Of a stretch of DNA of 64,000 nucleotides, positions 14,086 through 40,130 are shown piece by piece. Under the pieces are notes generated by a model. That model had not been told where the DNA came from. It saw nothing but the letters and a program-made list of their open reading frames with translations, and did not search any database. How positions within the stretch are numbered: position 1 is the stretch's first letter; the number at the start of each line of letters is the position of its first letter. The stretch is from Archaeoglobus sp. (GTDB lineage: Archaea > Halobacteriota > Archaeoglobi > Archaeoglobales > Archaeoglobaceae). The translations under genes and the position numbers were made by a program. The stretch is taken from assembly GCA_017656505.1 (NCBI GenBank), contig JACDNU010000005.1, positions 14,739 to 78,738 on the forward strand. The letters run 5' to 3'.

Positions 14086-14991
14086 ATGAAATGCAGATGT
14101 GGAGAACGAGCATCATTCTGGTTAAAACCCTATAGAATCGCTTTATGTGAGGATTGTTATCCACAGTTTTACGTTAATTTGGTAAAGAAAAGCATAAAGA
14201 GATTTAATATTCTTAAAAAATCTGAGAAAATCCTAGCCTGTGTTTCTGGTGGTAAGGACAGTATTTCAATGGTTTACGCACTAAAAGAATTAGGGTATGA
14301 TTTAAAAGCATTCTTTATCGATTTAGGTGTTAAGAAGTACTCCAAAAAAGCTAAGAGTGTGTTCGAGGAGATTTCAGGACTTCTCAACCTCGATTCAGAG
14401 GTTGTTAGCCTTGAAGACTACGGATTGCGAATTGACGATTTAACGCTAAAGAAGATATGCTCTGCCTGTGGGACCTCTAAGCGACATCTCATTAACAGAT
14501 TTGCCCGAGAGAATGGGTTTGACGTGATTGCGACAGGCCATACTTGCGATGATATTGTTGTCTTTTTCTTTAAAAATATGCTCAGCGGTAATCTTGAGTA
14601 CATACCAAAACTGAAACCAAGATTAGAGGGTTTTGATGGTTTGATAACGAGAACAAAGCCTATTTTCGAGAGAACAGAGAAGGAAAATCAAATTCTAGTA
14701 GAGATCCTGAACTTTCCGTATCTGAAAGAATCTTGCCCTCATAAGCCAGATGATAAGTGGAAAGAGTTTATTCAAAAAATGGAAGATGAAAAGCCAGGCT
14801 TTGAACAGACTTTTTTAAGGGGTTTACTAAAGCTCATAGACAGATTAAACTCAAAAATAGAGGTGGATTCAAGCTCTCTCAAAAGATGCCGCTTGTGCGG
14901 GGAGATTTCGAACAAAGAAATTTGCTACTTTTGCAGGTTGGTTGAGAAATACGGGAAAATCTCAAATTCAAAAGTTTTGAGGAAAGAGTAG
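14086..14991 (+). CDS. PP-loop ATPase, Ncs6/NcsA(TtcA)-type tRNA 2-thiolation protein with N- and C-terminal zinc fingers
   Basis: 301 aa. CRCGE...CEDC, PP-loop SGGKDS, C-terminal CRLCG...CYFC. Confidence 0.75.
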   Translation: MKCRCGERASFWLKPYRIALCEDCYPQFYVNLVKKSIKRFNILKKSEKILACVSGGKDSISMVYALKELGYDLKAFFIDLGVKKYSKKAKSVFEEISGLLNLDSEVVSLEDYGLRIDDLTLKKICSACGTSKRHLINRFARENGFDVIATGHTCDDIVVFFFKNMLSGNLEYIPKLKPRLEGFDGLITRTKPIFERTEKENQILVEILNFPYLKESCPHKPDDKWKEFIQKMEDEKPGFEQTFLRGLLKLIDRLNSKIEVDSSSLKRCRLCGEISNKEICYFCRLVEKYGKISNSKVLRKE

Positions 14992-29677: not shown

Positions 29678-29760
29678 TACTTTTGGCTGTTCCACTCCAA
29701 TTTGTATTTATGTGAAAAGATTTATTAGTGTTAAAAATTACAATTTTTGAAGGTGAGAAA

Positions 29761-30036
29761 ATGGGTGAAAAGCGGGAAGTTCAGTGGTACGAAATAGTAG
29801 ATAGCCCACCTACTGAACCTTTTGAGGCTTTGGTTGAAGTATATTTTCAAACAAAAGGTTACATTACCTCTTCAAATAAGTGGTTCTGGGTTCAAGAGAG
29901 AGGTAAAACGCAAAGGGGTTATAGAGACATCGATATTTTGGCTATTAACGGTGAGGAGACCCTTATCGTGTCGGTGACAACAAATCTTAAAGATAAAATA
30001 GGCAATCCAGAGAAACTGATTAGAGACTTTGAATAA
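29761..30036 (+). CDS. small protein, possible PD-(D/E)xK-like core (weak), first of a TAATG-overlapping pair
   Basis: ATG 29761 preceded by aaggtgag. Strand-like segments YRDIDILAINGEETLIVSVTT. No confident family assignment. Confidence 0.45.
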   Translation: MGEKREVQWYEIVDSPPTEPFEALVEVYFQTKGYITSSNKWFWVQERGKTQRGYRDIDILAINGEETLIVSVTTNLKDKIGNPEKLIRDFE

Positions 30037-30329
30037 TGGAGAGTTATCTAGAAAGAGCATATAAGTGGCTTATTGAAGGAAGAAAAGTGAAGAGAGTGTT
30101 AGTGTATGCCCATGGATACAAGAAACCCAGTAAAAAATTTGAAGAACGAAGAAAAGAGATAGAAAGGGAGAGAATCAAGTTGATTGGCCCTCAAAGAGAA
30201 ATACTCAAGGCAATAGAAAATTGGGTGAGAGAGAAGCATCGTGAGCTTGGCAATCAAACAGAATCAATAGGCATTAAAACAAACAATCTAATCATCAAAA
30301 TGATTGAATTTTTGGAAAAAGGAAAGTAA
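30036..30329 (+). CDS. small basic/helical protein, second of the TAATG-overlapping pair
   Basis: 97 aa. Its start codon shares one base with the upstream stop (gaaTAATGgag). Confidence 0.45.
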   Translation: MESYLERAYKWLIEGRKVKRVLVYAHGYKKPSKKFEERRKEIERERIKLIGPQREILKAIENWVREKHRELGNQTESIGIKTNNLIIKMIEFLEKGK

Positions 30330-30376: not shown

Positions 30377-30817
30377 TCAAAAACATAAAAATGCGGCCGC
30401 CGGGATTTGAACCCGGGTTAGAGGCTCGGGAAGCCCCTGTCCTGCCGCTAGACTACGACCGCTTGTGATGTTATTTTCTCCTTTATGAATATAATGGTTT
30501 CCCTTGAACAATTTCTCTCTTTCCAACCTCTCTATTCTCTCCTCAAGCAGTCTCAACCTCTTTTCAATATCCCCACTTGCCTTTTGTTGCACACTTGTTA
30601 TATCCAGATCCTCACTATCACTGAACACTACTCTTATCTCGTTCTCGCCCTCTTCAAATATGTATGCGTATTTCCCCATCTTGTCTTTTAACTTTACCGG
30701 TAGTCTTATTATTGCCAATTCCGCCCCCTTTCTTGGGCTTATCTTCCCAACCTTTACCCTTCCAATGTACCTTCCCATAGTGTGCACTTGTTGTTCAACA
30801 TATTTAACTATTTCCAA
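30377..30817 (-). CDS. int(N): N-terminal fragment of the partitioned SSV-type integrase; the frame runs through attL into the tRNA gene
   Basis: TTG start at 30817. Sequence reads ...IEKRLRLLEERIERLEREKLFKGNHYIHKGENN-ITSGRSLAAGQGLP, then the tRNA-encoded tail EPLTRVQIPAAAFLCF. The 14 aa encoded by the repeat are identical to those entering int(C). Confidence 0.8.
   Translation of the reverse strand: MEIVKYVEQQVHTMGRYIGRVKVGKISPRKGAELAIIRLPVKLKDKMGKYAYIFEEGENEIRVVFSDSEDLDITSVQQKASGDIEKRLRLLEERIERLEREKLFKGNHYIHKGENNITSGRSLAAGQGLPEPLTRVQIPAAAFLCF
30392..30462 (-). tRNA. tRNA-Gly (anticodon CCC)
   Basis: Hand-folded from the minus strand: GCGGUCG UA GUCU AGCGGCA GGAC A GGGGC UUCCCGA GCCUC UAAC CCGGG UUCAAAU CCCGG CGGCCGC A. 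7-bp acceptor stem with one G-U, canonical T-loop. CCA is not encoded. Confidence 0.9.
30426..30469. repeat. attL: 44-bp direct repeat (tRNA nt 1-37 plus 7 nt of 5' flank)
   Basis: tcgggaagcccctgtcctgccgctagactacgaccgcttgtgat is identical to 39896-39939. Confidence 0.95.
30482..30494 (-). promoter_or_regulatory. element-borne TATA-like box positioned upstream of the intact tRNA-Gly
   Basis: Minus strand reads ttatattcataaa. Its ttatattc core (30487-30494) is separated from tRNA position +1 by 24 nt. It lies inside int(N) coding sequence. Confidence 0.35.
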
Positions 30818-30830
30818 AATCGATTACCCT

Positions 30831-31151
30831 CTACCTGCCCCTAAAAACAAGAAAACTACTCCCAATTAAAAGAACACCAGGAATAATCCACAATATGTGT
30901 GTTGTGATAAATCCACCTACTCCACCTAACAACATTAAAGCGCTAGCAGCCTTGTTGTTCTTGTCTACAATTATGCCACCAATAATACCTAGTATTCCAA
31001 ATATTACTGTTACAATGCCAAATAAAACAAGAAATAATCCACCCGGTGCAAAGATTATTGTACCTACCGCACCAATTAACAATGTAAAAAACCCAATTAA
31101 CACTCCAACAATTCCACCAACAATCCCCAATAATTTTTCAATTCTGCCCAT
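30831..31151 (-). CDS. small 4-TM membrane protein (DUF4064-like), paralog 1
   Basis: 106 aa. GIIGGIIVDKNNKAASALMLLGG aligns with GIIGGAIANRNNKAAGVLMLISG of the 31417-31746 product. Confidence 0.75.
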   Translation of the reverse strand: MGRIEKLLGIVGGIVGVLIGFFTLLIGAVGTIIFAPGGLFLVLFGIVTVIFGILGIIGGIIVDKNNKAASALMLLGGVGGFITTHILWIIPGVLLIGSSFLVFRGR

Positions 31152-31327
31152 GTCCCCAAATATTTTTTAAAGTTTTTTACTTGTCTTCTTACTCAACTAT
31201 CAAAGCTTTCCTTAACTCATTGTTATAATTTTCTACAACCTTACTTGTTTCAATCAATGAAAGTATCTCTTTCACTCTTATCTCATTTTTAACCTCAATT
31301 TCCTTCCCTAACCTACCCTTAAATTTC

Positions 31328-31353
31328 AATACCCCTTGGATCCACAGGCATTC
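31328..31353. promoter_or_regulatory. 26-bp element-internal repeat, copy 1 (operator-like, TGGATCCA palindromic core)
   Basis: aataccccttggatccacaggcattc is identical to 34482-34507. Confidence 0.6.
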
Positions 31354-31416
31354 AAATAATATCCCTTGTTCAATCGTGTTAAGATCTTCTCTTCAATACG
31401 TCCATTTTTATAAGAT

Positions 31417-31746
31417 TTATTTCGATCTGAACGCTAAAGCTCCACCCACAATCAGGAGAATGCCCGGTATTATCCAAAAAGCTGAGACCGCTATAAATCC
31501 CAATATCCCACTGATCAACATTAGAACACCCGCAGCCTTATTGTTTCTATTCGCAATCGCTCCACCAATGATCCCAATCACGCCTAAAATTACAGCTCCA
31601 AAGCCAAGACCTGTTACAGTTTCGGCACCATGTACTCCCAATACCGCTCCAAAACCCCCAACAAACATCGCAAATATACCAATAAGAATTCCGAAGATAC
31701 CACCTATCAATCCTAAAACTAATTCTGCTGTTCTTCCCATATTCAA
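31417..31746 (-). CDS. small 4-TM membrane protein (DUF4064-like), paralog 2
   Basis: 109 aa. See paralog 1. Confidence 0.75.
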   Translation of the reverse strand: MNMGRTAELVLGLIGGIFGILIGIFAMFVGGFGAVLGVHGAETVTGLGFGAVILGVIGIIGGAIANRNNKAAGVLMLISGILGFIAVSAFWIIPGILLIVGGALAFRSK

Positions 31747-31770
31747 ACCTCCTTAAAAATAAAAATTAAA

Positions 31771-33114
31771 CTATATCCATGCCCAACCCTCTGCGAGAAC
31801 ATGGTCATCATCAACGAATCTCACTCTAACACTTGGCATCGTCTCAAAATACTCGTACTCAGACAATTCGATCGTTTTTTTCTCCCCCGGCTCTATAATT
31901 TCTCTAACATATCCAAGATACTCCCAAGAACCTCCACCATATTTTACCTCAACTTTACCAAGATATATTGGCCAGTTTCCCTTATTTGTAGCATAAAATA
32001 TCACTTTTTTGATTACAAACTCCCCAAAAGAAGTACCACCCTCAATTTTTCCACGTTCAATTTCAATTTTCGGCTCCATTTGTTTTAAATGCCCAACTTC
32101 ACCCTTCCATACTGCAATTTGCGACCCAAAGCTTGGGTTATACTTAACAAATATTTTCTGAGCATTTTTCGGTACTTCGAAACCCACAACTAAATTTCTA
32201 TATTCTTTGGGGTATAGCTTGCCACTCCCGGTACTCCAAATCTCTGCATCATATCTTCTTCCTGATTCATCGGTTAACCAAAAGTCTGAAGTACTAATGT
32301 ATTCTTTCTCCGATCCAGTGTTCTCAACTTTTACAGTTGCAACAATGAATACGCTATCCTCCTCAGCCCAACGGTTTCCAAATTCATCAGCAATTACATT
32401 TGTTTTTATAGCTTTGACAGTCACATTCAAGTTGGATGTTTTATAACTCTCCCCTAATTCTAACTCTACTACTTCTTGTTCACTCGGTTTAGGTGTTGGT
32501 GTTCGTGTACCAATTATTTCCGGTTTTATTCTTACTCCAAAATCTTCTTTAGCCTCAATTACTCTCCCATCCGGTAAGTGAACTTTCACGTAAAGTATTC
32601 CAAATTCGTCGTCAGATTCTTTTGCCTTTATATCCTCAAATGGAACTCTTATTCCTGCACTCAGAAACATATTTCCATCTTTCCAGCTCGTTATCATTGC
32701 TTTTCCTTGGTAGATTAGCCTCCCTTTAACGGGTTTGAAATTTTCATATTCTTTAGTATAGATCTCTATGTCTACAGGTAGCGATACCCCTTCAAACATA
32801 ACTGTGTCGTCTTTCTCATCTTTAAGAGTAACATAGACAACAATCCCATCATCTTCAGCATCTTCATCCCAATTTTTCGTAAATGTAGTTATGTGCCCAG
32901 ATTTTGCCGTCTTAAGCAATTTGAGTTGTTTTTCCTTTTCTGAATCAACCATTTGAGTTTTCGAATCTGTTTGAGGGGTGCTAGTTGTTTCTTTTGCGTA
33001 TTTAGGGGGCTCCTTTTCCGCACAACCAGCCAATGCAACCAATAAGAGAACCAAGACAAAAACCACAAACCCCACGCTTATTCTCACAATACCACCCCCC
33101 TTCGACAGGTGCAT
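31771..33114 (-). CDS. secreted lipoprotein-like protein with Ig-like (DUF4352-like) domain(s)
   Basis: 447 aa. Signal peptide with lipobox-like LAGC. Segment VFIVATVKVENTGSEKEYISTSDFWLTDESGRRYD resembles DUF4352. Confidence 0.7.
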   Translation of the reverse strand: MHLSKGGGIVRISVGFVVFVLVLLLVALAGCAEKEPPKYAKETTSTPQTDSKTQMVDSEKEKQLKLLKTAKSGHITTFTKNWDEDAEDDGIVVYVTLKDEKDDTVMFEGVSLPVDIEIYTKEYENFKPVKGRLIYQGKAMITSWKDGNMFLSAGIRVPFEDIKAKESDDEFGILYVKVHLPDGRVIEAKEDFGVRIKPEIIGTRTPTPKPSEQEVVELELGESYKTSNLNVTVKAIKTNVIADEFGNRWAEEDSVFIVATVKVENTGSEKEYISTSDFWLTDESGRRYDAEIWSTGSGKLYPKEYRNLVVGFEVPKNAQKIFVKYNPSFGSQIAVWKGEVGHLKQMEPKIEIERGKIEGGTSFGEFVIKKVIFYATNKGNWPIYLGKVEVKYGGGSWEYLGYVREIIEPGEKKTIELSEYEYFETMPSVRVRFVDDDHVLAEGWAWI

Positions 33115-33235
33115 TTTAGGTTAATTCTATAAAATATAAAGCTTTCTGACAAACAAAATTTATCACCATTATATTTTTCAATCAATCAATCCATTCTTTT
33201 CTAGTCAACTTTGCGCCTTTTTATTCCCCTTTTCT

Positions 33236-33751
33236 CTATTCTATTATTCTCCCATTAATCAATATTGGCAACCTCCAAGTTCCGTAATCTGTTCTCTCCC
33301 AGTAACTATCCAGAACCGCCTCGAAAGTAATCTTGTCCCCTTTAGGGTAGGACGTAAGTTTCTCCTTCTGATCAGGCAGTAATTTAACTACAACTGTACT
33401 TGATGCTGCAACGCCCGTAAACCTCACAATCATCTTGTCCCCTTTTTCTGATACCGAGTCAACCTGACCGCTCCATTTTACGCACTTCCCTTTATATTCC
33501 TTGAACTTCTCTTTCTTCTGCAATGACGTGTACTTACTATAAGGCGAGAACATCTTCCAAAAATCATAAAATTTCAAATCGATGCATTCCATGTTTTCAG
33601 TTGCCGTAGGTGTTGCAGTCTGCGTTTTATTTCCCCCACCAAACAAAATCCCCAACACAATCAAAGCAACAAAAATGTAAACAACATACCCAAACCAACG
33701 CACAATCCTCCTCTTACTCCCTATCAACGGTAATTTCTGCCTTACCCCCAT
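33236..33751 (-). CDS. N-terminally TM-anchored extracytoplasmic protein, unknown function
   Basis: 171 aa. One TM segment (VVYIFVALIVLGILFGG), then a beta-rich domain. Confidence 0.65.
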   Translation of the reverse strand: MGVRQKLPLIGSKRRIVRWFGYVVYIFVALIVLGILFGGGNKTQTATPTATENMECIDLKFYDFWKMFSPYSKYTSLQKKEKFKEYKGKCVKWSGQVDSVSEKGDKMIVRFTGVAASSTVVVKLLPDQKEKLTSYPKGDKITFEAVLDSYWERTDYGTWRLPILINGRIIE

Positions 33752-33772
33752 GACGTATATCTGATTTTTCTG

Positions 33773-33780
33773 TTATATAG
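33773..33780. promoter_or_regulatory. TATA box (ttatatag) in the 61-bp divergent spacer of the element
   Basis: About 25 nt from ATG 33751 (minus-strand gene, leaderless-compatible) and 33 nt from ATG 33813 (plus-strand gene). Confidence 0.4.
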
Positions 33781-33812
33781 TTTTTACCCAACATATTAGT
33801 ATCTAATGTTCA

Positions 33813-34040
33813 ATGTCAATTGTAAGCAAAACAAAACTCGCAATTCTAAAAGAACTATCAAAACAACCACTTCATGGTTATGCTCTTTCTAAAAAGCTCA
33901 ATGTTACCATTTCCTCCGTCTATGCCCACCTTTCTGAACTTGAGGAGTATGGTTTCGTTACCCACCAAACGTCAGATAGGCGCAAACTCTACTCCCTCAC
34001 AACTAAAGGTAAAAAATTGCTTCAATTATTATCAAAATAA
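33813..34040 (+). CDS. small winged-helix regulator (PadR/ArsR-like); only plus-strand gene of the element
   Basis: 75 aa. LAILKELSKQPLHGYALSKKLNVTISSVYAHLSELEEYGFV. Confidence 0.75.
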   Translation: MSIVSKTKLAILKELSKQPLHGYALSKKLNVTISSVYAHLSELEEYGFVTHQTSDRRKLYSLTTKGKKLLQLLSK

Positions 34041-34086
34041 TTTCCCATCCCACTATCCCTTGCTCCTCTCAATTTTATTCACAATG

Positions 34087-34473
34087 CTATTCAACCGGTA
34101 TCCGATTCTCTGGGGATATATCCCACCACTTACTGGGACTTTCGATCTCATAAACTGCTCTTGGGTATAGAGCAACACATACGTACCCGTGGACTGGGCA
34201 GTCATTGCGTATAACAGGTGGGTGAGGGCATATACATTTACCCTCTCTCCTCACAAAAGCGTAGCCAATAAACACTTGGAAAGGCATATCCGGATGGGGA
34301 CCATGAACCTCCCATACCGCTTCCGTATCCATAACTAACCCCCGTTTTTTCAGTCTTCTTTTAATCTTCCTAACTATTTCAACATCGTAATCCAAATCAA
34401 GAAACCCCATCTCAACCACCCCCATCAACTTCTTTATTTTGTGATTTTTTATTTTTTCCATACTCTCTTTCAT
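34087..34473 (-). CDS. hypothetical Cys/His-containing protein of the element
   Basis: 128 aa. GKCICPHPPVIRNDCPVHGYVC. Its ATG lies 9 nt downstream of 26-bp repeat copy 2. Confidence 0.6.
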   Translation of the reverse strand: MKESMEKIKNHKIKKLMGVVEMGFLDLDYDVEIVRKIKRRLKKRGLVMDTEAVWEVHGPHPDMPFQVFIGYAFVRREGKCICPHPPVIRNDCPVHGYVCVALYPRAVYEIESPSKWWDISPENRIPVE

Positions 34474-34481
34474 CCATAATT

Positions 34482-34507
34482 AATACCCCTTGGATCCACA
34501 GGCATTC
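34482..34507. promoter_or_regulatory. 26-bp element-internal repeat, copy 2
   Basis: Identical to 31328-31353. Confidence 0.6.
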
Positions 34508-34518
34508 GATACTTGCAT

Positions 34519-34776
34519 TTACCACACCTGTCCATTCATTCTGAATCTCTTCCCGAAACTTTCAACAACCCACCAGTCAATATTCCCATTCCAGCTTTCC
34601 CCGCCTTGCCTCAATAACAGCATCGCATCAGCAATAAACATCGCATCCCAATCCCTATTCTCTTCCACTGCCTTCTTGAATTCATTATACAACCCGTCCA
34701 GCCTACCCTCTTTTTTCTTTATCGCCTTCTCCATTCTCTCTTTCCCGCCTTGAACTAACTCTTTTATTTTCACCAT
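34519..34776 (-). CDS. hypothetical protein of the element
   Basis: 85 aa. Its start overlaps the TerL-like stop by 7 nt. Confidence 0.55.
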   Translation of the reverse strand: MVKIKELVQGGKERMEKAIKKKEGRLDGLYNEFKKAVEENRDWDAMFIADAMLLLRQGGESWNGNIDWWVVESFGKRFRMNGQVW

Positions 34777-36248
34777 AAAGCCCCAGCCCCAACAAGCTCA
34801 TCTAAATTCATAAAATCAGCAACCGAGCACCTACCACTATTGAAGCCATACAGACTCAGAGCCAGAGCGTCAACAATGTCGCTCTCAAAATTTCTCAGCT
34901 TTATTACATCTTTCCCGCCATCTGCCCTATATTTCACCTTGAAAGCGTTAAATTGTTGCCTTAGCCGTTCATCTCTCAATAGAAATAGTCCACCCTCCTC
35001 GATCTGATATTTCAAATTGTCATACAAATTAAATCTCTCTTTTCTCTTGCCAAAATTAAATCCAACCACGCTAATACCCTTATCCTCTAATCTTTCTTTT
35101 AGTACGTCATGCACCCCACTACCAAGCCCGGTCTCGTCTATCACTACTTTACTCGCCTTGAATTTCTTAACCAAGTTCTCCAGCCAGCCAAGCTGCCAAC
35201 TTAATCCTTTTTTTGAAACAGTTCGGTAATCTATCATGTAATAGCTCCCTTCTAATCGACCCAAAACCACCACCGCAGTCTTTGAACTTCCATGCCTCGC
35301 AATATCGCAGCCCAGCACTATCTCGTCAAAGTAATTCAAACTCTTGTTATCATAGCTCTTCTTTTCTACCACCATCTTCTCTCTTACCCTTGCCATATCA
35401 AAAAAGTCATCTTCTGAAATATCTCTCCATTGGCAATTATACCAAATGTCAAATTCGTCCTCACTTAATTGCTTTCTCACAAAATCAACTTCATCCTTGC
35501 TCATTATTCCCTCTTTCACAGCATCTCGCCAAGTTATCCGGTATTTTTCAAAATCGCCACTGTTCCAAGCATCCCAAAGGTAGGAATCTTTAATGTGCGG
35601 CGTTCCAATCGTAAATAACAAGTTTTTACCTTCTTTTTTCGTCATCAGCATTCTTAAAATTCTCTGTTTGATTACATCTCTTGGTGTCGAACCCGCCTCG
35701 TCAACAATAACCACATCCGCACCGTATCCCAAAAGTCCCTCAGGGTTGGTTGCACTCAAACATAAAATCTTACTCCCGTTCTTAAGCTCTATCCGCCCAT
35801 TATGCCTCTGGATTCTTCTAACCGCTCTCCATAATTTCTTGTTTCTCCATAAGTAGCCATCAATCCTCTCAAAAATCCCCTCAATCGCCTGTCTGTATAT
35901 TGGTGCAATTATCACAATCTGCGTTGCTGGTCTCAATAAAGCAAGCAATAGCCCTAACACACTAACAAGTTCAGTCTTGCCCCCCCTTGTGCAACTTATA
36001 ATACAATATTTTCCACTTCCACTCCCCAAGCCAAAAGCATCCCTCAAAACTGTTTCTGAAATCTGTCGCTGGTATTTCGTCAATTCTAATGGCTGTCCGT
36101 CTGGTCGTATCAGATTGGCAGATATCCACGAATTCAAAATCCTCTCAATCCGAGCCTCACTAAGTCGAATCGCTTTCATTTTCTCAATCAATATTTCTCT
36201 TTTATTCAATCTCTTCAAATAAATCGGGTATGCCATCGTCATCCTCAT
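34770..36248 (-). CDS. terminase large subunit-like ATPase/nuclease
   Basis: 492 aa. Walker A CTRGGKT, Walker B VVIVDEAG, TIGTP coupling-like motif. RNaseH-like nuclease acidic motifs LGCDIARHGSSKTAVVV, VVIDETGLG, SDIVDALALS. True start may be an internal Met. Confidence 0.75.
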   Translation of the reverse strand: MRMTMAYPIYLKRLNKREILIEKMKAIRLSEARIERILNSWISANLIRPDGQPLELTKYQRQISETVLRDAFGLGSGSGKYCIISCTRGGKTELVSVLGLLLALLRPATQIVIIAPIYRQAIEGIFERIDGYLWRNKKLWRAVRRIQRHNGRIELKNGSKILCLSATNPEGLLGYGADVVIVDEAGSTPRDVIKQRILRMLMTKKEGKNLLFTIGTPHIKDSYLWDAWNSGDFEKYRITWRDAVKEGIMSKDEVDFVRKQLSEDEFDIWYNCQWRDISEDDFFDMARVREKMVVEKKSYDNKSLNYFDEIVLGCDIARHGSSKTAVVVLGRLEGSYYMIDYRTVSKKGLSWQLGWLENLVKKFKASKVVIDETGLGSGVHDVLKERLEDKGISVVGFNFGKRKERFNLYDNLKYQIEEGGLFLLRDERLRQQFNAFKVKYRADGGKDVIKLRNFESDIVDALALSLYGFNSGRCSVADFMNLDELVGAGALW

Positions 36249-36384
36249 TATTTTTCAAATCTACTCTCAACTCGCTCAATATTCGATTGTAAGTCTCAAT
36301 TGCTCTTATGTCCCCATTCTCAACATGCTCCTCTAAAGCCTCCAGCAATTTTCTTCTCTCCTTTACTATTTCATCAATATTCAA
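36202..36384 (-). CDS. small acidic helical protein
   Basis: 60 aa. 4-nt start/stop overlap with the upstream RHH gene. Sits where phages place a small terminase subunit, but there is no sequence support for that role. Confidence 0.45.
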   Translation of the reverse strand: MNIDEIVKERRKLLEALEEHVENGDIRAIETYNRILSELRVDLKNNEDDDGIPDLFEEIE

Positions 36385-36716
36385 TTTTGAGCCTCCTCGC
36401 TCAGCAGTTTTTTTATTAGCACCTGAATCATCTTAGATCGTGATATGCCGATTTCTCCACATAGATCTCCGAAACGCTCCCAAACATCTCGCTCCACAAA
36501 GAATGTAGTCTTTCTCCAATTACCCCCTTTAGCAAAAACTTCGCCGTCCTCGCCACACATCTCCAAAAAACTCGATATCGTAGCCCGGATTACCTCGCTC
36601 TTCTCAAGTTTATTCGAAATTGCAAACCGATCAAGCTCATCAGCAAGTTCTGGATCGATCGACATACTCACAAGTTTCGCATCTTTCAGCTTTTTCAGTC
36701 TGCCCATTTGTATCAC
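36381..36716 (-). CDS. tandem ribbon-helix-helix (CopG-like) DNA-binding protein
   Basis: 111 aa. Two RHH-like units (KLVSMSIDPELADELDRFAI...VIRATISSFL and KTTFFVERDVWERFGDLCG...MIQVLIKKLL). Confidence 0.65.
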   Translation of the reverse strand: MIQMGRLKKLKDAKLVSMSIDPELADELDRFAISNKLEKSEVIRATISSFLEMCGEDGEVFAKGGNWRKTTFFVERDVWERFGDLCGEIGISRSKMIQVLIKKLLSEEAQN

Positions 36717-38257
36717 CCCACCCTCACCAAATTAAACTCATCTCGCACTTTCTTTTTCTTGCCTGCCGAACCATTAGCATCCCCTACTAAAACCGCAATC
36801 TCACGCCTCAATCGCTCCTTTTTTGCTTCTGCGCGTTGAATTCGATCAACCTCGCCAATCGTCATCTCTCCCTGTAAGGCCTTTTGTAACACTTCTTTAA
36901 TCGTCATATCCTTCTTCGCTTCCAACGCTCGCAACTCTTTCTCCAATCTTCTTATTTTGCCGATATTATCCAACGTTTTAATAATCTCACTCATATCTGC
37001 TCCTTTTAACGCAGCTTTAGCCAAATCTCTGCTCTTACCGTATTTCTGTGCTAATCTAACCTCCTTTCGAACGCCTTGAGCCATCTTTTCAAGTCTTTTG
37101 CCCACTTTATCCAATCGACTTATCTCATCTTGGTATAACGAAACCGTTTCAATCAACTGTTTGACGGCGTCCGCCAGCATGGCCACTTTTGAAAGCAGCT
37201 CATCAACTTTCTCATTTAAAAAACTCTCATTCAAATTCTCACCCCCCATAACTTTTCCAACAAGGCCAAAACGGCCACTTTCATCTAAAACAAACATCTT
37301 CCAACCCATCTTCTTACTGAACTCGCTTACTATACTCCCAACATTTCTTCCAATATTCTTGCCAATGACCTTAACTAAGTCTAAAACTTTCCTGCAACCC
37401 TTCAATATCGATTTAAAGCCTGATTTCACCCGTGATTGACCACCACCCTGATCTTGGAATTCCAAATCATCATCAATACACAACTCAAAAGCCTCAACCT
37501 CAATTAGCGCATCTATTAATGCAAATATATCGTTCTGATTGCCTTTTTCCTGCTTTGCTCGCCTCAATGCAAAGAGTATGTTTCTTATCGGATACCCAAG
37601 CAACTTATTAAGCAAAAGCCCAATCTTCAAAATAGCTCGTTCAAGATATTCACGCCAATTCTTTCTCGTAACTTTCTTATGACCGAGTGATAGGTAATTA
37701 ATGTCTGCCTCTTCCAGCAATTCCTTAGCGCCCTTGGTTCTTCTTAAATCCACACTATGGTGCAATATCTTTATCCCATCTTTCCCATATTTAGAAACTG
37801 CCTTTTCAAACCTTGGAATCACTCGTTTCTCTACAACTGTACGGTCAATCTGTCCGCTGCCCCAGTTACGGGATTCTATGTAAATTGGTGTTCCGTTATA
37901 TTCGCACCTTACATCAACTCCATTCCCAATCTCCAGCCCAACATGCTCAATATTGTCCAAACCCAAATACTGGCAAGCTTGCTCATCCAAAAGTTCCTGA
38001 TGCAACCCATCTTTGATATCGTGAGCGCTTACTTTAACCCCCAATTTTTTTGCGTAATTTCGAACAGTATTAGGATCAACAACAACCCCAAAGAGCTTAT
38101 CTAGCTCTCTAGCCGCCCCAGTATAGCCAAATTTATTAATTAGTTCTCTAATTAGTTTTTTTAATTCATTTTTTGGAAGGGGAATGTCATCTAACTTACT
38201 CGGTCTGCCCCGCCCTTCTTTTTTCCTCTTTCTATTATTCGATATTGTATCGACCAT
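36713..38257 (-). CDS. multi-domain protein: AT-hook, HTH, possible PD-(D/E)xK-like core, long C-terminal coiled coil
   Basis: ATG at 38257 (the track TTG at 38299 is an extension). KKEGRGRPSKL AT-hook, GYTGAARELDKLFG..NTVRNYAKKLG HTH, GVDVRCEYNGTPIYIESRNW. About 200 aa of heptad-rich sequence. Confidence 0.65.
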   Translation of the reverse strand: MVDTISNNRKRKKEGRGRPSKLDDIPLPKNELKKLIRELINKFGYTGAARELDKLFGVVVDPNTVRNYAKKLGVKVSAHDIKDGLHQELLDEQACQYLGLDNIEHVGLEIGNGVDVRCEYNGTPIYIESRNWGSGQIDRTVVEKRVIPRFEKAVSKYGKDGIKILHHSVDLRRTKGAKELLEEADINYLSLGHKKVTRKNWREYLERAILKIGLLLNKLLGYPIRNILFALRRAKQEKGNQNDIFALIDALIEVEAFELCIDDDLEFQDQGGGQSRVKSGFKSILKGCRKVLDLVKVIGKNIGRNVGSIVSEFSKKMGWKMFVLDESGRFGLVGKVMGGENLNESFLNEKVDELLSKVAMLADAVKQLIETVSLYQDEISRLDKVGKRLEKMAQGVRKEVRLAQKYGKSRDLAKAALKGADMSEIIKTLDNIGKIRRLEKELRALEAKKDMTIKEVLQKALQGEMTIGEVDRIQRAEAKKERLRREIAVLVGDANGSAGKKKKVRDEFNLVRVG

Positions 38258-38365
38258 AATATCAACTCCACTAACCAGTGCAACGGTAGTCAGCCCCAAA
38301 ATAGCCTCCTGCGGGGCCCACTCCTCCTAAACGTTCACTCTATTCTACATCAACTTTTATATTTC

Positions 38366-38375
38366 GATATATATC
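38366..38375. promoter_or_regulatory. 10-bp perfect AT-rich palindrome gatatatatc upstream of the element's long operon (TATA box and/or unwinding element)
   Basis: Read directly. Lies 67 nt upstream of TTG 38299 and 109 nt upstream of ATG 38257. Confidence 0.35.
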
Positions 38376-38656
38376 TGTTACTAATATAGTATCAGTTGAG
38401 GCGATATTTAAGTTTTTCTCGGTTGTGCATGCTCCATTTTCCAAAATCGGTTTACAGGTTATTTATCTGCCAGTTGCAAAATATATAAACGTTTCTATTT
38501 CTCAAATTACATTGTCAAATAGCATCCCTATTTTTCTTACAATGTAAAGTAAAAGATTATCAAAATTTTACAAAAATCCAAACCCATCTTTTTATTTGTA
38601 TTACATTCATCAATAATTTCCCTCCGCCCAATACCTACAGTATACTAAGCCCTCAG

Positions 38657-38946
38657 TCGGTATTCACGCCTCCACATTATCGTAAATATACCAACCATCC
38701 CCATCCTCCCATGCCCCTCTTATTATATCGGTATTTTGCCCACCTGATCTCTTCTGTCGGTATTGTTTTCCCGAATTCACGCCGTTATCTTTCAGTATAT
38801 GGTTTCGCCGGTGTTCAGCTTGCCCAATTACTTCCACAATCCAATATAAGATTTTATCTTCCTGTTCCATAATTATTCCGGTATCTGTTTAGCTTGCCGC
38901 ATTTCCGATTTCCCCGCACTCCCACCATCTCCTCAATTTCGGTATT
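38657..38946. repeat. iteron-like array: five same-orientation copies of (T/C)CGGTAT(T/C)
   Basis: TCGGTATT at 38657, 38728, 38757 and 38939; CCGGTATC at 38878. The copies fall in different reading frames of the two weak minus-strand ORFs here. Confidence 0.6.
38664..38870 (-). CDS. questionable small ORF inside the iteron region
   Basis: 68 aa (MEQEDKILYWIVEVIGQAEH...). Composition is protein-like, but the ORF is riddled with the DNA-level repeat. Confidence 0.3.
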   Translation of the reverse strand: MEQEDKILYWIVEVIGQAEHRRNHILKDNGVNSGKQYRQKRSGGQNTDIIRGAWEDGDGWYIYDNVEA

Positions 38947-39108
38947 TTTCAGCATCCCAGCCCCCCAAACCTCAATTTTCTTATATATACGGCGCCGGGC
39001 AAAGTAACAAAATAGATAGTAAGTACAATAGAGTGGGTGGTGGGTGTTAATAATAAAACAAATCATTAAGGCTAAACGTACTTTACTTACTAACAATACA
39101 TGAAAAAA

Positions 39109-39939
39109 TTAATTGATGATGGTTTGTAACGTTGGTGCAACTTTTTTGTATTCCCGTAATGCGTTGTTCATGAGCTCAAGATAGTGTGTTGCTAGGGTTG
39201 ATTTAGTAGAGTGTCCCATCAAAAATTCAATTGTTGGTTGTGTAACGCCAAGCTGTAACAGTTTATTTGCGAACCAGTTCCTGCAATGTTTTGGTTTCAT
39301 TTTATGTGTCCAGTTCTTGTAGAGTATGCGCTCACTAATGTAAATTTGATCTAATTGCTTTGCAAAGCTTGCTGGCATGAATAGCTTGTTTGCTCGCTTA
39401 TTGTGTCTGATCCAGTTCATATCATAAAATGCCACGCCATCAACAAAGTGCAGCTTGCTCGGTTCAAATTCTGTTAGCACCTTTATACCCTCTATAACCC
39501 TGCATCCTGAGTACAGCATTAGCTTGATCAGTGTTTTGACTCTATGATCCTTTATTGCAGCAAGGGTTTCTTTAACCTCGGTATCGGTTGGCAGGTATAC
39601 GTCAAAGCCAGTCCTTTTCAATTTAAGAACGCTCTTCAGTTCAGCAGCTTGTTCTTTAGTAACGATCCCCTTCTGCATGCAGTAATTGATTAAGTTCCTT
39701 AGACTCCGAGCGTACCAGTTCCAACTTTTTACGTGCTTGGCAATCTCAAGAATGTCATCAATATTTCTAATTACGGTACCACTCAAATACCGGTTCAAAT
39801 CGTTAATGTAATGGCGTGCAGTACCCTTTTCTACTCTGGCATGTATCCACTTTACGAAATCTTGCTTTACAGCATCGTAATCAATTAAAACAGCATCGGG
39901 AAGCCCCTGTCCTGCCGCTAGACTACGACCGCTTGTGAT
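39109..39939 (-). CDS. int(C): catalytic C-terminal portion of the partitioned SSV-type tyrosine integrase (no start codon of its own upstream of attR)
   Basis: The frame is open from the stop at about 39955 through attR: KTITSGRSLAAGQGLP-DAVLIDYDAVKQDFVKWIHARVEKGTARHYINDL-NRYLSG... Candidate catalytic residues lie in YSGCRVIEG, KHCRNWF, LMGHS and ATHYL. Confidence 0.8.
   Translation of the reverse strand: MTSGRSLAAGQGLPDAVLIDYDAVKQDFVKWIHARVEKGTARHYINDLNRYLSGTVIRNIDDILEIAKHVKSWNWYARSLRNLINYCMQKGIVTKEQAAELKSVLKLKRTGFDVYLPTDTEVKETLAAIKDHRVKTLIKLMLYSGCRVIEGIKVLTEFEPSKLHFVDGVAFYDMNWIRHNKRANKLFMPASFAKQLDQIYISERILYKNWTHKMKPKHCRNWFANKLLQLGVTQPTIEFLMGHSTKSTLATHYLELMNNALREYKKVAPTLQTIIN
39896..39939. 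repeat. attR: 44-bp direct repeat containing a 5' half-copy of tRNA-Gly (39896-39932)
   Basis: Identical to 30426-30469. Not followed by the tRNA 3' half. Confidence 0.95.
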
Positions 39940-39959
39940 TGTTTTCTTAGGTATCTATG

Positions 39960-39967
39960 TAAATAAA
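39960..39967 (-). promoter_or_regulatory. probable native tRNA-Gly TATA box, now stranded next to the half-tRNA at attR
   Basis: Minus strand reads tttattta, with 27 nt between it and position +1 of the tRNA half-copy. Confidence 0.4.
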
Positions 39968-40130
39968 CATTACTGTAATTACTGTAGTTAAATTTATCAC
40001 ACTCAAACCTTCCACCATCTTTCTGCTTTCTCAATTTTTCTGTACACCATGGTGCACTACCGCTCTACTCTGTTGCCCTTTCCGATCTACCCTAGCTGAT
40101 TTACCCTGATATTCTGTTCTCCCAAATGTT

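Follow-up and report, generated by a model that had tools for sequence, protein, structure and literature searches.

Integration Locus of the Element

The assembly GCA_017656505.1 of Archaeoglobus sp. carries, on contig JACDNU010000005.1, a mobile element that is inserted in a tRNA gene and encodes a large terminase (TerL). The window analyzed here is a stretch of 64,000 nt of this contig (forward strand, positions 14,739 to 78,738), and all coordinates refer to it unless another contig is named. There is very little doubt that 30426-39939 is a site-specifically integrated mobile element of Archaeoglobus, of the suicidal-integrase kind, and its size is 9,470 bp when one copy of the terminal repeat is included. 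Its ends are marked by the following features.

30392-30462, minus strand: intact tRNA-Gly(CCC), called by ARAGORN and by Rfam RF00005 (61.5 bits), with nt 1-37 lying within the attL repeat
30426-30469: attL, the 44-bp att core, an exact repeat with only two copies in the window and 0 expected by chance
39896-39939: attR, the 44-bp att core, forming an orphan 5' half-tRNA with the native tRNA upstream region TTTATTTACATA to its right

The 44-mer, TCGGGAAGCCCCTGTCCTGCCGCTAGACTACGACCGCTTGTGAT, is a perfect direct repeat. Allowing as many as 3 mismatches brought up no third copy in the window, and 100 shuffles gave an expectation of 0. An independent repeat search recovered the same pair with a spacing of 9,470 bp, and the identity breaks off abruptly at both boundaries. 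The tRNA-Gly(CCC) is the single tRNA of the window, and its Rfam score compares with a gathering score of 29. The left repeat copy consists of tRNA nt 1-37 plus 7 nt of 5' flank. An original prediction, made from the letters alone, had described this perfect repeat, the intact tRNA at its left copy and the orphan half-tRNA at its right copy, and all three are confirmed, the window's one tRNA lying at attL. The possibility that the 44-mer is a dispersed repeat is contradicted by its restriction to two copies in the window.

The Partitioned Integrase

The integrase gene is divided between the two ends of the element. Related elements are cited below by locus numbers (L001 and so on), and dN/dS denotes the ratio of nonsynonymous to synonymous substitution rates.

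30470-30778, minus strand: int(N), recognized by translation and joining; 74% amino acid identity to int(N) of L001; dN/dS 0.23-0.31 against L001, L003 and L012
39109-39895, minus strand: int(C), with the whole catalytic domain; PF16795 and SSV1 Int structures; dN/dS 0.25 against L025

A minus-strand open reading frame (ORF), 30817..30377, reads ...HKGENNITSGRSLAAGQGLP and continues into the tRNA, and a second frame enters from attR as KKTITSGRSLAAGQGLPDAVLIDYDAV..., offers as its first start codon a TTG at 39798 and stops at 39109. Both frames read ITSGRSLAAGQGLP across the repeat. When the N-half, one repeat copy and the C-half are joined, an uninterrupted frame is obtained, which has 392 codons from the TTG at 30817 or 379 aa from the ATG at 30778. 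The ATG is probably the true start, because in the relative L018 a stop codon shortly precedes the equivalent Met. Both frames had been noticed in the original prediction, as had the total of 392 aa for their fusion, and these points hold, with the ATG as the likelier start; its division into 130 + 33 + 229 aa does not stand and is replaced by 116 aa + 44 nt + 262 aa.

The joined protein matches the Pfam family PF16795 'Archaeal phage integrase' at 3.2e-33 (115 bits, cutoff 27) and the SSV1 integrase catalytic-domain structures 3UXU, 3VCF and 4DKS at ~1e-13 over residues 216-375. The catalytic Arg (SGCRV), the Arg of the (H)xxR motif (HCRN) and the Tyr (THY) are aligned with the SSV1 positions, and the proposed identity as an SSV-type tyrosine recombinase is thereby corroborated. 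It is assigned to the 'suicidal' SSV type because attP lies inside int, int(N) and int(C) lie at opposite ends of the element and the target is a tRNA gene, and attP inside int together with the splitting of the halves at tRNA insertion is defining for this type (PMC7253208). Half of the closed genomes of Archaeoglobales carry suicidal integrases, with up to five per genome, and AveSNP6_IE1 provides a precedent for a target at the 5' end of a tRNA (PMC7253208). In the relative L005, the integrase halves likewise join into one ORF.

Over both integrase halves, TerL and other genes, dN/dS is 0.17-0.34, which indicates purifying selection. Together with the perfect repeats and the open integrase frame, these values support the earlier view of an element that is complete rather than decayed. 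In comparison with L001, int(N) is 74% identical and int(C) 28%, and the target tRNA of L001 is tRNA-Gly(TCC), not Gly(CCC). Judging by these identities, the discordance of the two halves conforms to the pattern of hybrids with switched targets that is on record for suicidal integrases, and hybrid int(N)/int(C) genes are known in Archaeoglobales (PMC7253208).

After excision, the predicted order of the attP junction would be AAAGGAGAAAATAAC-ATCACAAGCGGTCGTAGTCTAGCGGCAGGACAGGGGCTTCCCGA-TGCTGTTTTAATTGATTACG, and that of the attB junction on the plus strand CCGGGTTAGAGGC-44-mer-TGTTTTCTTAGGTATC. The intact tRNA gets its upstream region from the element, because the att core is the 5' half of the tRNA. 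A TATA-like ATTATATTCATAAA is positioned ~21-34 nt upstream of the intact tRNA, within the last codons of int(N) (30470-30505), and the native upstream region is stranded at the orphan half-tRNA (39940-39975). From these motifs, the element appears to supply a replacement promoter for tRNA-Gly(CCC).

The Large Terminase

Within the cargo, the gene that makes the element unusual is that of the terminase.

34770-36248, minus strand: TerL, with an N-terminal ATPase and a C-terminal RNase H-like nuclease; recognized by Pfam, PHROG, PDB profiles and an AlphaFold2 (AF2) model

The Pfam matches of TerL are Terminase_6N, Terminase_6C and TerL_ATPase, and phrog_2 is matched at 1.6e-32. Its alignment profile finds, in the PDB, the ATPase and nuclease domains of the Thermus phages P74-26 and G20c and of T4 gp17. 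Among 19 aligned homologues, of which the most distant are 34% identical, the following residues are invariant or nearly so: R88, G90 and K91 of Walker A, D183 and E184 of Walker B, T216-P217, and the nuclease residues D315, D371, D457 and D460. The AF2 model has a pLDDT of 82, and Foldseek matches it over its full length to the TerL of T4 (gp17), HK97, D6E and Sf6 at 1e-16 to 1e-20; the top match among viral models is the TerL of HGTV-1 (Halogranum tailed virus 1), at 2.7e-31. Against its relatives, TerL has a dN/dS of 0.17-0.22. On its conserved motifs and its model, therefore, TerL looks genuine, complete and functional. The NCBI annotation begins at Met24 and has 469 aa, and TerL and the protein p528 described below are 100% identical to the NCBI 'MAG: Archaeoglobus sp.' proteins H0Z28_02670 and H0Z28_02685 (MAG, metagenome-assembled genome). 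The original prediction had recognized in the cargo no described virus or plasmid family, and it overlooked the large terminase.

An Element Family in Archaeoglobales

Homologues of TerL with 51-83% identity were found only in Archaeoglobales or in unclassified archaeal contigs. A scan of GTDB genomes with the TerL profile gave only two MAGs, likewise Archaeoglobales or unclassified archaeal, and no cultured host. Where the available sequence extends far enough, the homologues belong to a family of elements with a common backbone, which consists of the split SSV-type integrase, a helix-turn-helix (HTH) nuclease, a ribbon-helix-helix (RHH) protein, p60, TerL and p85. The backbone order is shared by L001, L003, L004/5, L007, L009-11, L012, L013, L018, L023 and L028, so that the search of other archaeal genomes for the same gene set, which the original prediction had recommended, returned Archaeoglobales contigs with tRNA repeats and split integrases.

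Members are 5.5-9.5 kb in size, and at least one is larger. Both ends are on the contig in L007 (7.36 kb between 56-bp tRNA-derived direct repeats) and in L009-L011 (5.52 kb in tRNA-Pro(TGG), with a ~60-bp repeat). End sites are tRNA-Gly(TCC) for L001 and L003 and tRNA-Thr(GGT) for L004, and the targets across the family comprise Gly(TCC), Gly(CCC), Thr(GGT), Pro(TGG) and one without assigned identity. The smallest members, of 5.5 kb, encode the integrase, a 368-aa HTH-nuclease, TerL and five proteins of 63-149 aa. In the relative L018 (GCA_002010125.1, MTMK01000065.1; 8690-9105 and 300-400), the same tRNA-Gly(CCC) is used with its 3' half as att and in the opposite orientation. Two integrase lineages of the family thus target opposite halves of one tRNA gene.

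Virion Genes and Viral Relatives

Among all ORFs of the window, Pfam and PHROG scans detected no capsid, portal, protease or tail gene in the element, nor a Rep, primase, helicase/MCM or partition gene; divergent archaeal structural proteins may evade such profile searches. In the same scans, neither structural nor replication genes turned up among the larger proteins of the relatives that lack an assignment.

The nearest TerLs outside the family are 33-36% identical and lie on IMG/VR viral contigs of 12-60 kb, which also encode a family B DNA polymerase (PolB), a helicase, a Cas4-like nuclease and glycosyltransferases. At ~6-8 kb from TerL, PHROGs detect a portal (4e-42), a head-maturation protease and a major head protein (5e-35). 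By their gene content, these contigs are bona fide head-tailed viruses. The detection of their portal, protease and head genes by PHROGs thus serves as a positive control for the absence of structural genes in the family. Head-tailed proviruses have also been reported in Archaeoglobi (PMC11705971).

Other Genes and Cargo

The genes of the element are on the minus strand, with the exception of a PadR regulator. The order from attR is int(C), two small ORFs, an AT-rich region, p528, the RHH protein, p60, TerL, p85, a block of 3.15 kb, a DUF4064-like gene and int(N). The features not yet listed are the following.

30831-31151, minus strand: DUF4064-like small membrane protein, copy a; PF13273 at 1e-6 (29.3 bits, below the gathering score of 32.1) and phrog_6780 at 1e-12
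31328-31353: 26-bp perfect direct repeat, copy 1, an imperfect palindrome; distal edge of a nested 3,154-bp cassette
31417-31746, minus strand: DUF4064 small membrane protein, copy b; PF13273 at 1e-12 and phrog_6780 at 2.5e-24
31771-33114, minus strand: predicted lipoprotein or surface protein of 447 aa with DUF4352; PF11611 at 4e-15 and phrog_806 at 3e-15; an N-terminal hydrophobic segment followed by Cys
33236-33751, minus strand: membrane-anchored protein of 171 aa, superinfection-exclusion (Sie)-like / tRNA_anti-like OB fold; phrog_8545 at 2.6e-7 and PF12869 at 2.4e-4
33813-34040, plus strand: PadR-type winged-helix regulator of 75 aa; PF03551 at 1.8e-11; 75-96% conserved in relatives
34087-34473, minus strand: p128, 128 aa, 100% identical in L001 and L002; no Pfam, PHROG or PADLOC match
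34482-34507: 26-bp perfect direct repeat, copy 2, directly downstream of TerL-p85; position kept in L001, L002, L003 and L012
34519-34776, minus strand: p85, small backbone protein directly downstream of TerL, in every locus covering the position except L023; no match in Pfam, PHROG or a PDB profile search
36202-36384, minus strand: p60, small acidic helical backbone protein directly upstream of TerL, conserved in all family members
36381-36716, minus strand: tandem RHH (CopG/Arc-like) protein of 111 aa; RHH_1 at 3e-6 and phrog_876 at 4.5e-10
36713-38299, minus strand: p528, with an HTH, a PD-(D/E)xK (Mrr-like) nuclease and a helical/coiled-coil C-half; first gene of the backbone operon
38300-38663: AT-rich non-coding region of 364 bp, with a TATA-like box and the paired near-palindromes TTACATTGTAA / GACAATGTAA
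38664-39096, minus strand: two overlapping small ORFs of 68 and 80 aa, 84-100% identical in L001; no family match

The homologues of p528 share the alignment motif GVD(V/I)...E(S/C/V/I)KNW (D...ExK), and a profile search with p528 returned ~60 HTH+nuclease proteins, some of which have a Pfam Mrr_cat match. The full-length AF2 model is poor (pLDDT 55), and residues 20-220 reach a pLDDT of 70-90. The top fold match of this part is 1Y88 (AF1548), followed by restriction or nicking endonucleases and Hjc, all of them weak (E >= 6e-3). Helical structure and strong conservation also mark the long C-terminal half of p528. Upstream of p528, the minus strand at 38500-38580 contains the two near-palindromes and the TATA-like GTTTATATATTTT, which are likely the operator and promoter of the backbone operon, and on the same sequence features 38300-38663 is possibly a candidate origin of replication or packaging site as well. 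A scan for sigma-70 promoters and terminators gave nothing better than shuffles, and its consensus is bacterial and thus uninformative for an archaeon.

As a candidate for a truncated small terminase (TerS), p60 was rejected as unsupported, its hidden Markov model match having an E-value of 2.5 (842 ORFs) and its hhalign probability being 2.8%. A MAFFT alignment of p60 with the 130-167-aa gene upstream of TerL in the viral contigs had looked suggestive, and the similarity is non-significant. PDB profile searches with p60, p85 and the viral protein upstream of TerL gave only noise. PADLOC found no known defence protein or system in the element.

The 26-bp repeat, which on the minus strand reads GAATGCCTGTGGATCCAAGGGGTATT (an imperfect palindrome), bounds a block of 3,154 bp (31354-34507) with DUF4064 copy b, the DUF4352 lipoprotein, the Sie-like protein, PadR and p128. 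In L003, one 26-bp copy is present without this block, and p85 continues straight into the sequence beyond the other copy, so that the block behaves like a cassette that was inserted or deleted. From its sequence and position, the 26-bp motif might serve for recombination, as an operator or for packaging. Identity to L001 is 94% at 38408-39108 and 100% for the p128 protein, 83% for TerL, 50% for p528 and 28% for int(C), and contrasts as steep as these imply recent exchange of modules among elements. The relative L028 (GCA_054032555.1, JBPNPJ010000002.1; 7156-21413) has a complete type I restriction-modification (R-M) system behind the backbone (HsdM, HsdS, HsdR and a 520-aa protein), which adjoins a type III-A CRISPR-Cas locus with Csx1 and Csx3.

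The GC skew is -0.3 to -0.5 over the entire element (30500-39000), strongly negative because the coding is almost uniformly on the minus strand, and the GC content of 37-42% is slightly under that of the flanks. The flanks encode ordinary archaeal genes, among them S-adenosylhomocysteinase, GatB and a topoisomerase. Two adjacent small plus-strand ORFs of 102 and 97 aa (29728-30329), for which no Pfam match was found, lie in the gap that separates a metallophosphoesterase-like gene from the tRNA 3' end.

Empty Site, Circle and Full-Length Integrase

A scan of metagenome contigs for the 44-mer gave four loci, L024-L027. Three of these come from strains that are 91-97% identical and hold the same element or a sister of it; L025 and L026 cover its attR junction and L027 covers attL. 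The conservation of the orphan attR in diverged strains was discarded as a signal of selection, the search having demanded the exact 44-mer, which is an ascertainment bias. The fourth locus, L024 (Ga0209426_1000019), has an uninterrupted tRNA-Gly(CCC) and falls short of a clean empty site, since its 5' flank matches the attR-distal flank of the window for just 6 nt more and its far side is non-syntenic. The 5' side of this tRNA, at 44-1258, contains genes for an HNH endonuclease and for a protein of 299 aa whose match to restriction endonucleases is weak, in the genome of a more distant member of Archaeoglobales; by their gene content, they may be another mobile insertion at tRNA-Gly(CCC).

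The contig ends of L005 join into an intact integrase ORF, yet they coincide with a k=31 assembly-graph break in the 45-nt att, and L005 was not accepted as a circular form. Terminal overlaps of at least 16 nt were absent among the contigs tested, and public proteins contain only C-halves of the integrase, of 225-301 aa.

A Proposed Satellite of Head-Tailed Viruses and the Alternatives

A catalytically complete packaging motor is conserved in the family without shell genes, and for this reason we tentatively read the element as a 'hitcher', a satellite that exploits head-tailed archaeal viruses and would enter helper capsids by means of its own terminase; we give this reading close to an even chance. 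With a little more reserve, we propose its fuller form, namely that the family is the first recognized one of archaeal tailed-virus satellites, equipped with its own TerL and HTH-nuclease, lacking capsid, portal and TerS, capturing helper procapsids when DNA is packaged and shuttling exclusion or restriction cargo among hyperthermophilic Archaeoglobales, a strategy on record for no other satellite.

With very little doubt, the element entered the genome when the 44-bp attP inside its SSV-type integrase gene recombined with the identical attB in the 5' half of tRNA-Gly(CCC), which left int(N) and the intact tRNA at attL and int(C) and the orphan half-tRNA at attR. In the proposed life cycle, infection by a helper, or induction, would bring about excision and rebuild the integrase gene of 379/392 aa. 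The TerL of the element would then cut the element DNA and pump it into procapsids made by the helper. The HTH-nuclease, the RHH protein or both might substitute for a small terminase in site recognition; by way of analogy, HNH nucleases assist HK97-type terminases. The packaged DNA would probably be concatemeric, as expected for a genome of just 5.5-9.5 kb. The particles would deliver the element to new cells, where the rebuilt integrase would insert it into the tRNA gene, and the variable cargo may repay the host, with a membrane or exclusion-like cassette of 3.15 kb here and type I R-M in L028.

Several points weigh against this satellite. No helper virus was found, and neither a replication function nor a small terminase could be recognized in the element. 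Public data yielded no clean empty site, no attP junction and no full-length integrase gene. The carriage of the element at the same site in strains 91-97% identical (L025-L027) fits long residence as well as activity. IMG/VR holds only TerL relatives of 36%, no p528 homologue and no family member, and a mechanism with the terminase only has no exact precedent that we know of.

The alternative with the strongest claim, though an unlikely one, is an autonomous integrative plasmid or cryptic element, which spreads independently of a helper and in which the terminase has been exapted, for example to process or resolve replication intermediates or to load DNA into vesicles. The lack of a known helper and of a recognizable small terminase and the absence from IMG/VR favor it, and many archaeal elements with suicidal integrases are plasmids (PMC7253208). 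Against it, none of the members yielded a gene for a replication initiator, a primase, a helicase or partition, and TerL retains both its ATPase and nuclease catalytic sets and the full two-domain packaging fold. To our knowledge, this combination of ATPase and nuclease domains is known only in capsid packaging.

Rather improbable is a mobile anti-virus island, whose TerL and HTH-nuclease would sabotage the packaging of tailed viruses, as a portal decoy or by cutting concatemers, and whose membrane proteins would block superinfection. Such an island would be of benefit to the host, and its own packaging would be unneeded. The exclusion-like cargo (the 'Sie-like' phrog_8545 protein and the DUF4352 lipoprotein) and the type I R-M system of L028 agree with this reading, and bacterial satellites are hotspots of defence genes and interfere with helper packaging. 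However, PADLOC finds no known defence protein, interference and self-packaging can go together in known satellites, and a pure decoy would need no strictly conserved ATPase and nuclease residues.

It is very unlikely that the element is a minimal virus with a capsid and portal too divergent to recognize. ArcVen-P3 offers a parallel, being equal in size, host order and split integrase (PMC4158269), and p60, p85 and the C-half of p528 are without functional assignment; but the gene content of the 5.5-kb members is too small for an HK97-type capsid, portal and tail, TerL-driven packaging is known only with a portal, and the p528 model comprises an HTH, a nuclease and a coiled coil and no capsid fold. 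A head-tailed provirus decayed by deletion of its structural genes is just as hard to credit, for although TerL is a hallmark of Caudoviricetes with its nearest outside relatives in complete-looking tailed-virus contigs, and deletion at a short repeat occurs in the family (the 26-bp repeat cassette), one compact backbone is kept at TerL identities of 51-83% and at five or more tRNA sites, and separate losses would not end in a single gene set. In addition, purifying selection acts on every gene tested, the att repeats match perfectly and the integrase reads without a break.

Significance

The integration mechanism itself is textbook for hyperthermophilic archaea, and the novelty lies in the cargo. 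Tailed viruses of hyperthermophilic Euryarchaeota are only recently emerging, and no archaeal tailed-virus satellite with its own packaging motor has been described so far. An intact TerL that is under selection without capsid genes suggests that Archaeoglobales have a helper virus still to be discovered. Should the satellite reading be true, it would represent a new way of hijacking virions, via the motor and not via a recognition subunit or the capsid size. With about six backbone genes, a 44-bp att and conserved candidate cis sites, the element offers a compact and tractable system for terminase-portal specificity and for the reconstitution of suicidal integrases. Furthermore, such elements move defence and exclusion genes (the membrane cassette, type I R-M) among vent archaea.

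Comparison With Known Systems

Among bacterial satellites, PICIs contribute TerS or Rpp, and a TerL is found in cf-PICIs, where capsid and portal genes accompany it; we know of no described bacterial satellite other than these cf-PICIs, with their capsid genes, that has a TerL. The element resembles PICI/SaPI, cf-PICI, PICMI, P4 and PLE as a small integrase island at a tRNA or another conserved site, with an incomplete virion set, a packaging-related gene and variable defence or exclusion cargo, and the minimal PICMI size of ~5.5 kb is similar to that of the family. It differs from them in being archaeal, in its SSV-type integrase and in that no Rep, primase or recognizable TerS was found. PICIs and SaPIs are defined by an integrase, a master repressor, a primase-replicase with ori, and TerS or another gene that redirects packaging, in a bacterial host. 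The element is no member of this group, although it may function as a PICI does.

In archaea, pSSVx, pSSVi, the haloarchaeal SRCEs and the Asgard NMV2S are likewise small, with an incomplete morphogenetic module, and the use of helper virions has been proposed or shown for them. While pSSVx, pSSVi and the SRCEs parasitize spindle-shaped viruses and none of these has a terminase, the Asgard NMV2S are circular, plasmid-like molecules on the scale of 3.8 kb, with a helicase-primase and no terminase.

References for the SSV-type integrase elements of hyperthermophilic archaea are She et al. (2001) and Badel et al. (2020, PMC7253208). With SSV1, pTN3 and the integrated pT26-2-related elements of Thermococcales and Archaeoglobales, the element has in common the attP inside int, the splitting of int at the tRNA and the catalytic domain of PF16795/SSV1 Int. 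The hallmarks of pRN, pSSVx, pT26-2, pTN3 and fuselloviruses (prim-pol RepA, MCM or SF3 helicase, fusellovirus VP1/VP3, pT26-2 core genes) are absent, judged by Pfam and PHROG domain scans. The SSV-type carriers described are fuselloviruses, plasmids like pT26-2 or pAMT11/TKV1 and unclassified elements, and none has been reported with a large terminase (PMC7253208).

The fold and motifs of TerL connect the element with HGTV-1 and with the IMG/VR contigs L014-L017 and L032. Those genomes are of 12-60+ kb and have a portal, a protease, a major head protein and PolB, none of which was found in the element family; of the Caudoviricetes hallmark triad (HK97-fold major capsid protein, portal, TerL), the element has TerL only. 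Another putative provirus of the order, the 9.5-kb ArcVen-P3 of A. veneficus SNP6, has been proposed to be a very small virus (PMC4158269). The element is like it in host order, size, perfect tRNA-derived repeats and split SSV-type integrase, and the two are set apart by description, because ArcVen-P3 has an FtsK-like packaging ATPase and a single jelly-roll capsid protein of the sphaerolipovirus type (PMC4158269), whereas the element has a Caudoviricetes-type TerL and no recognizable capsid protein. A full-text search of open-access papers and preprints gave no report of small terminase-bearing elements of Archaeoglobales. Apparently, then, the family is hitherto undescribed, and it combines a known integration system with a new backbone that is centred on TerL and has no capsid.

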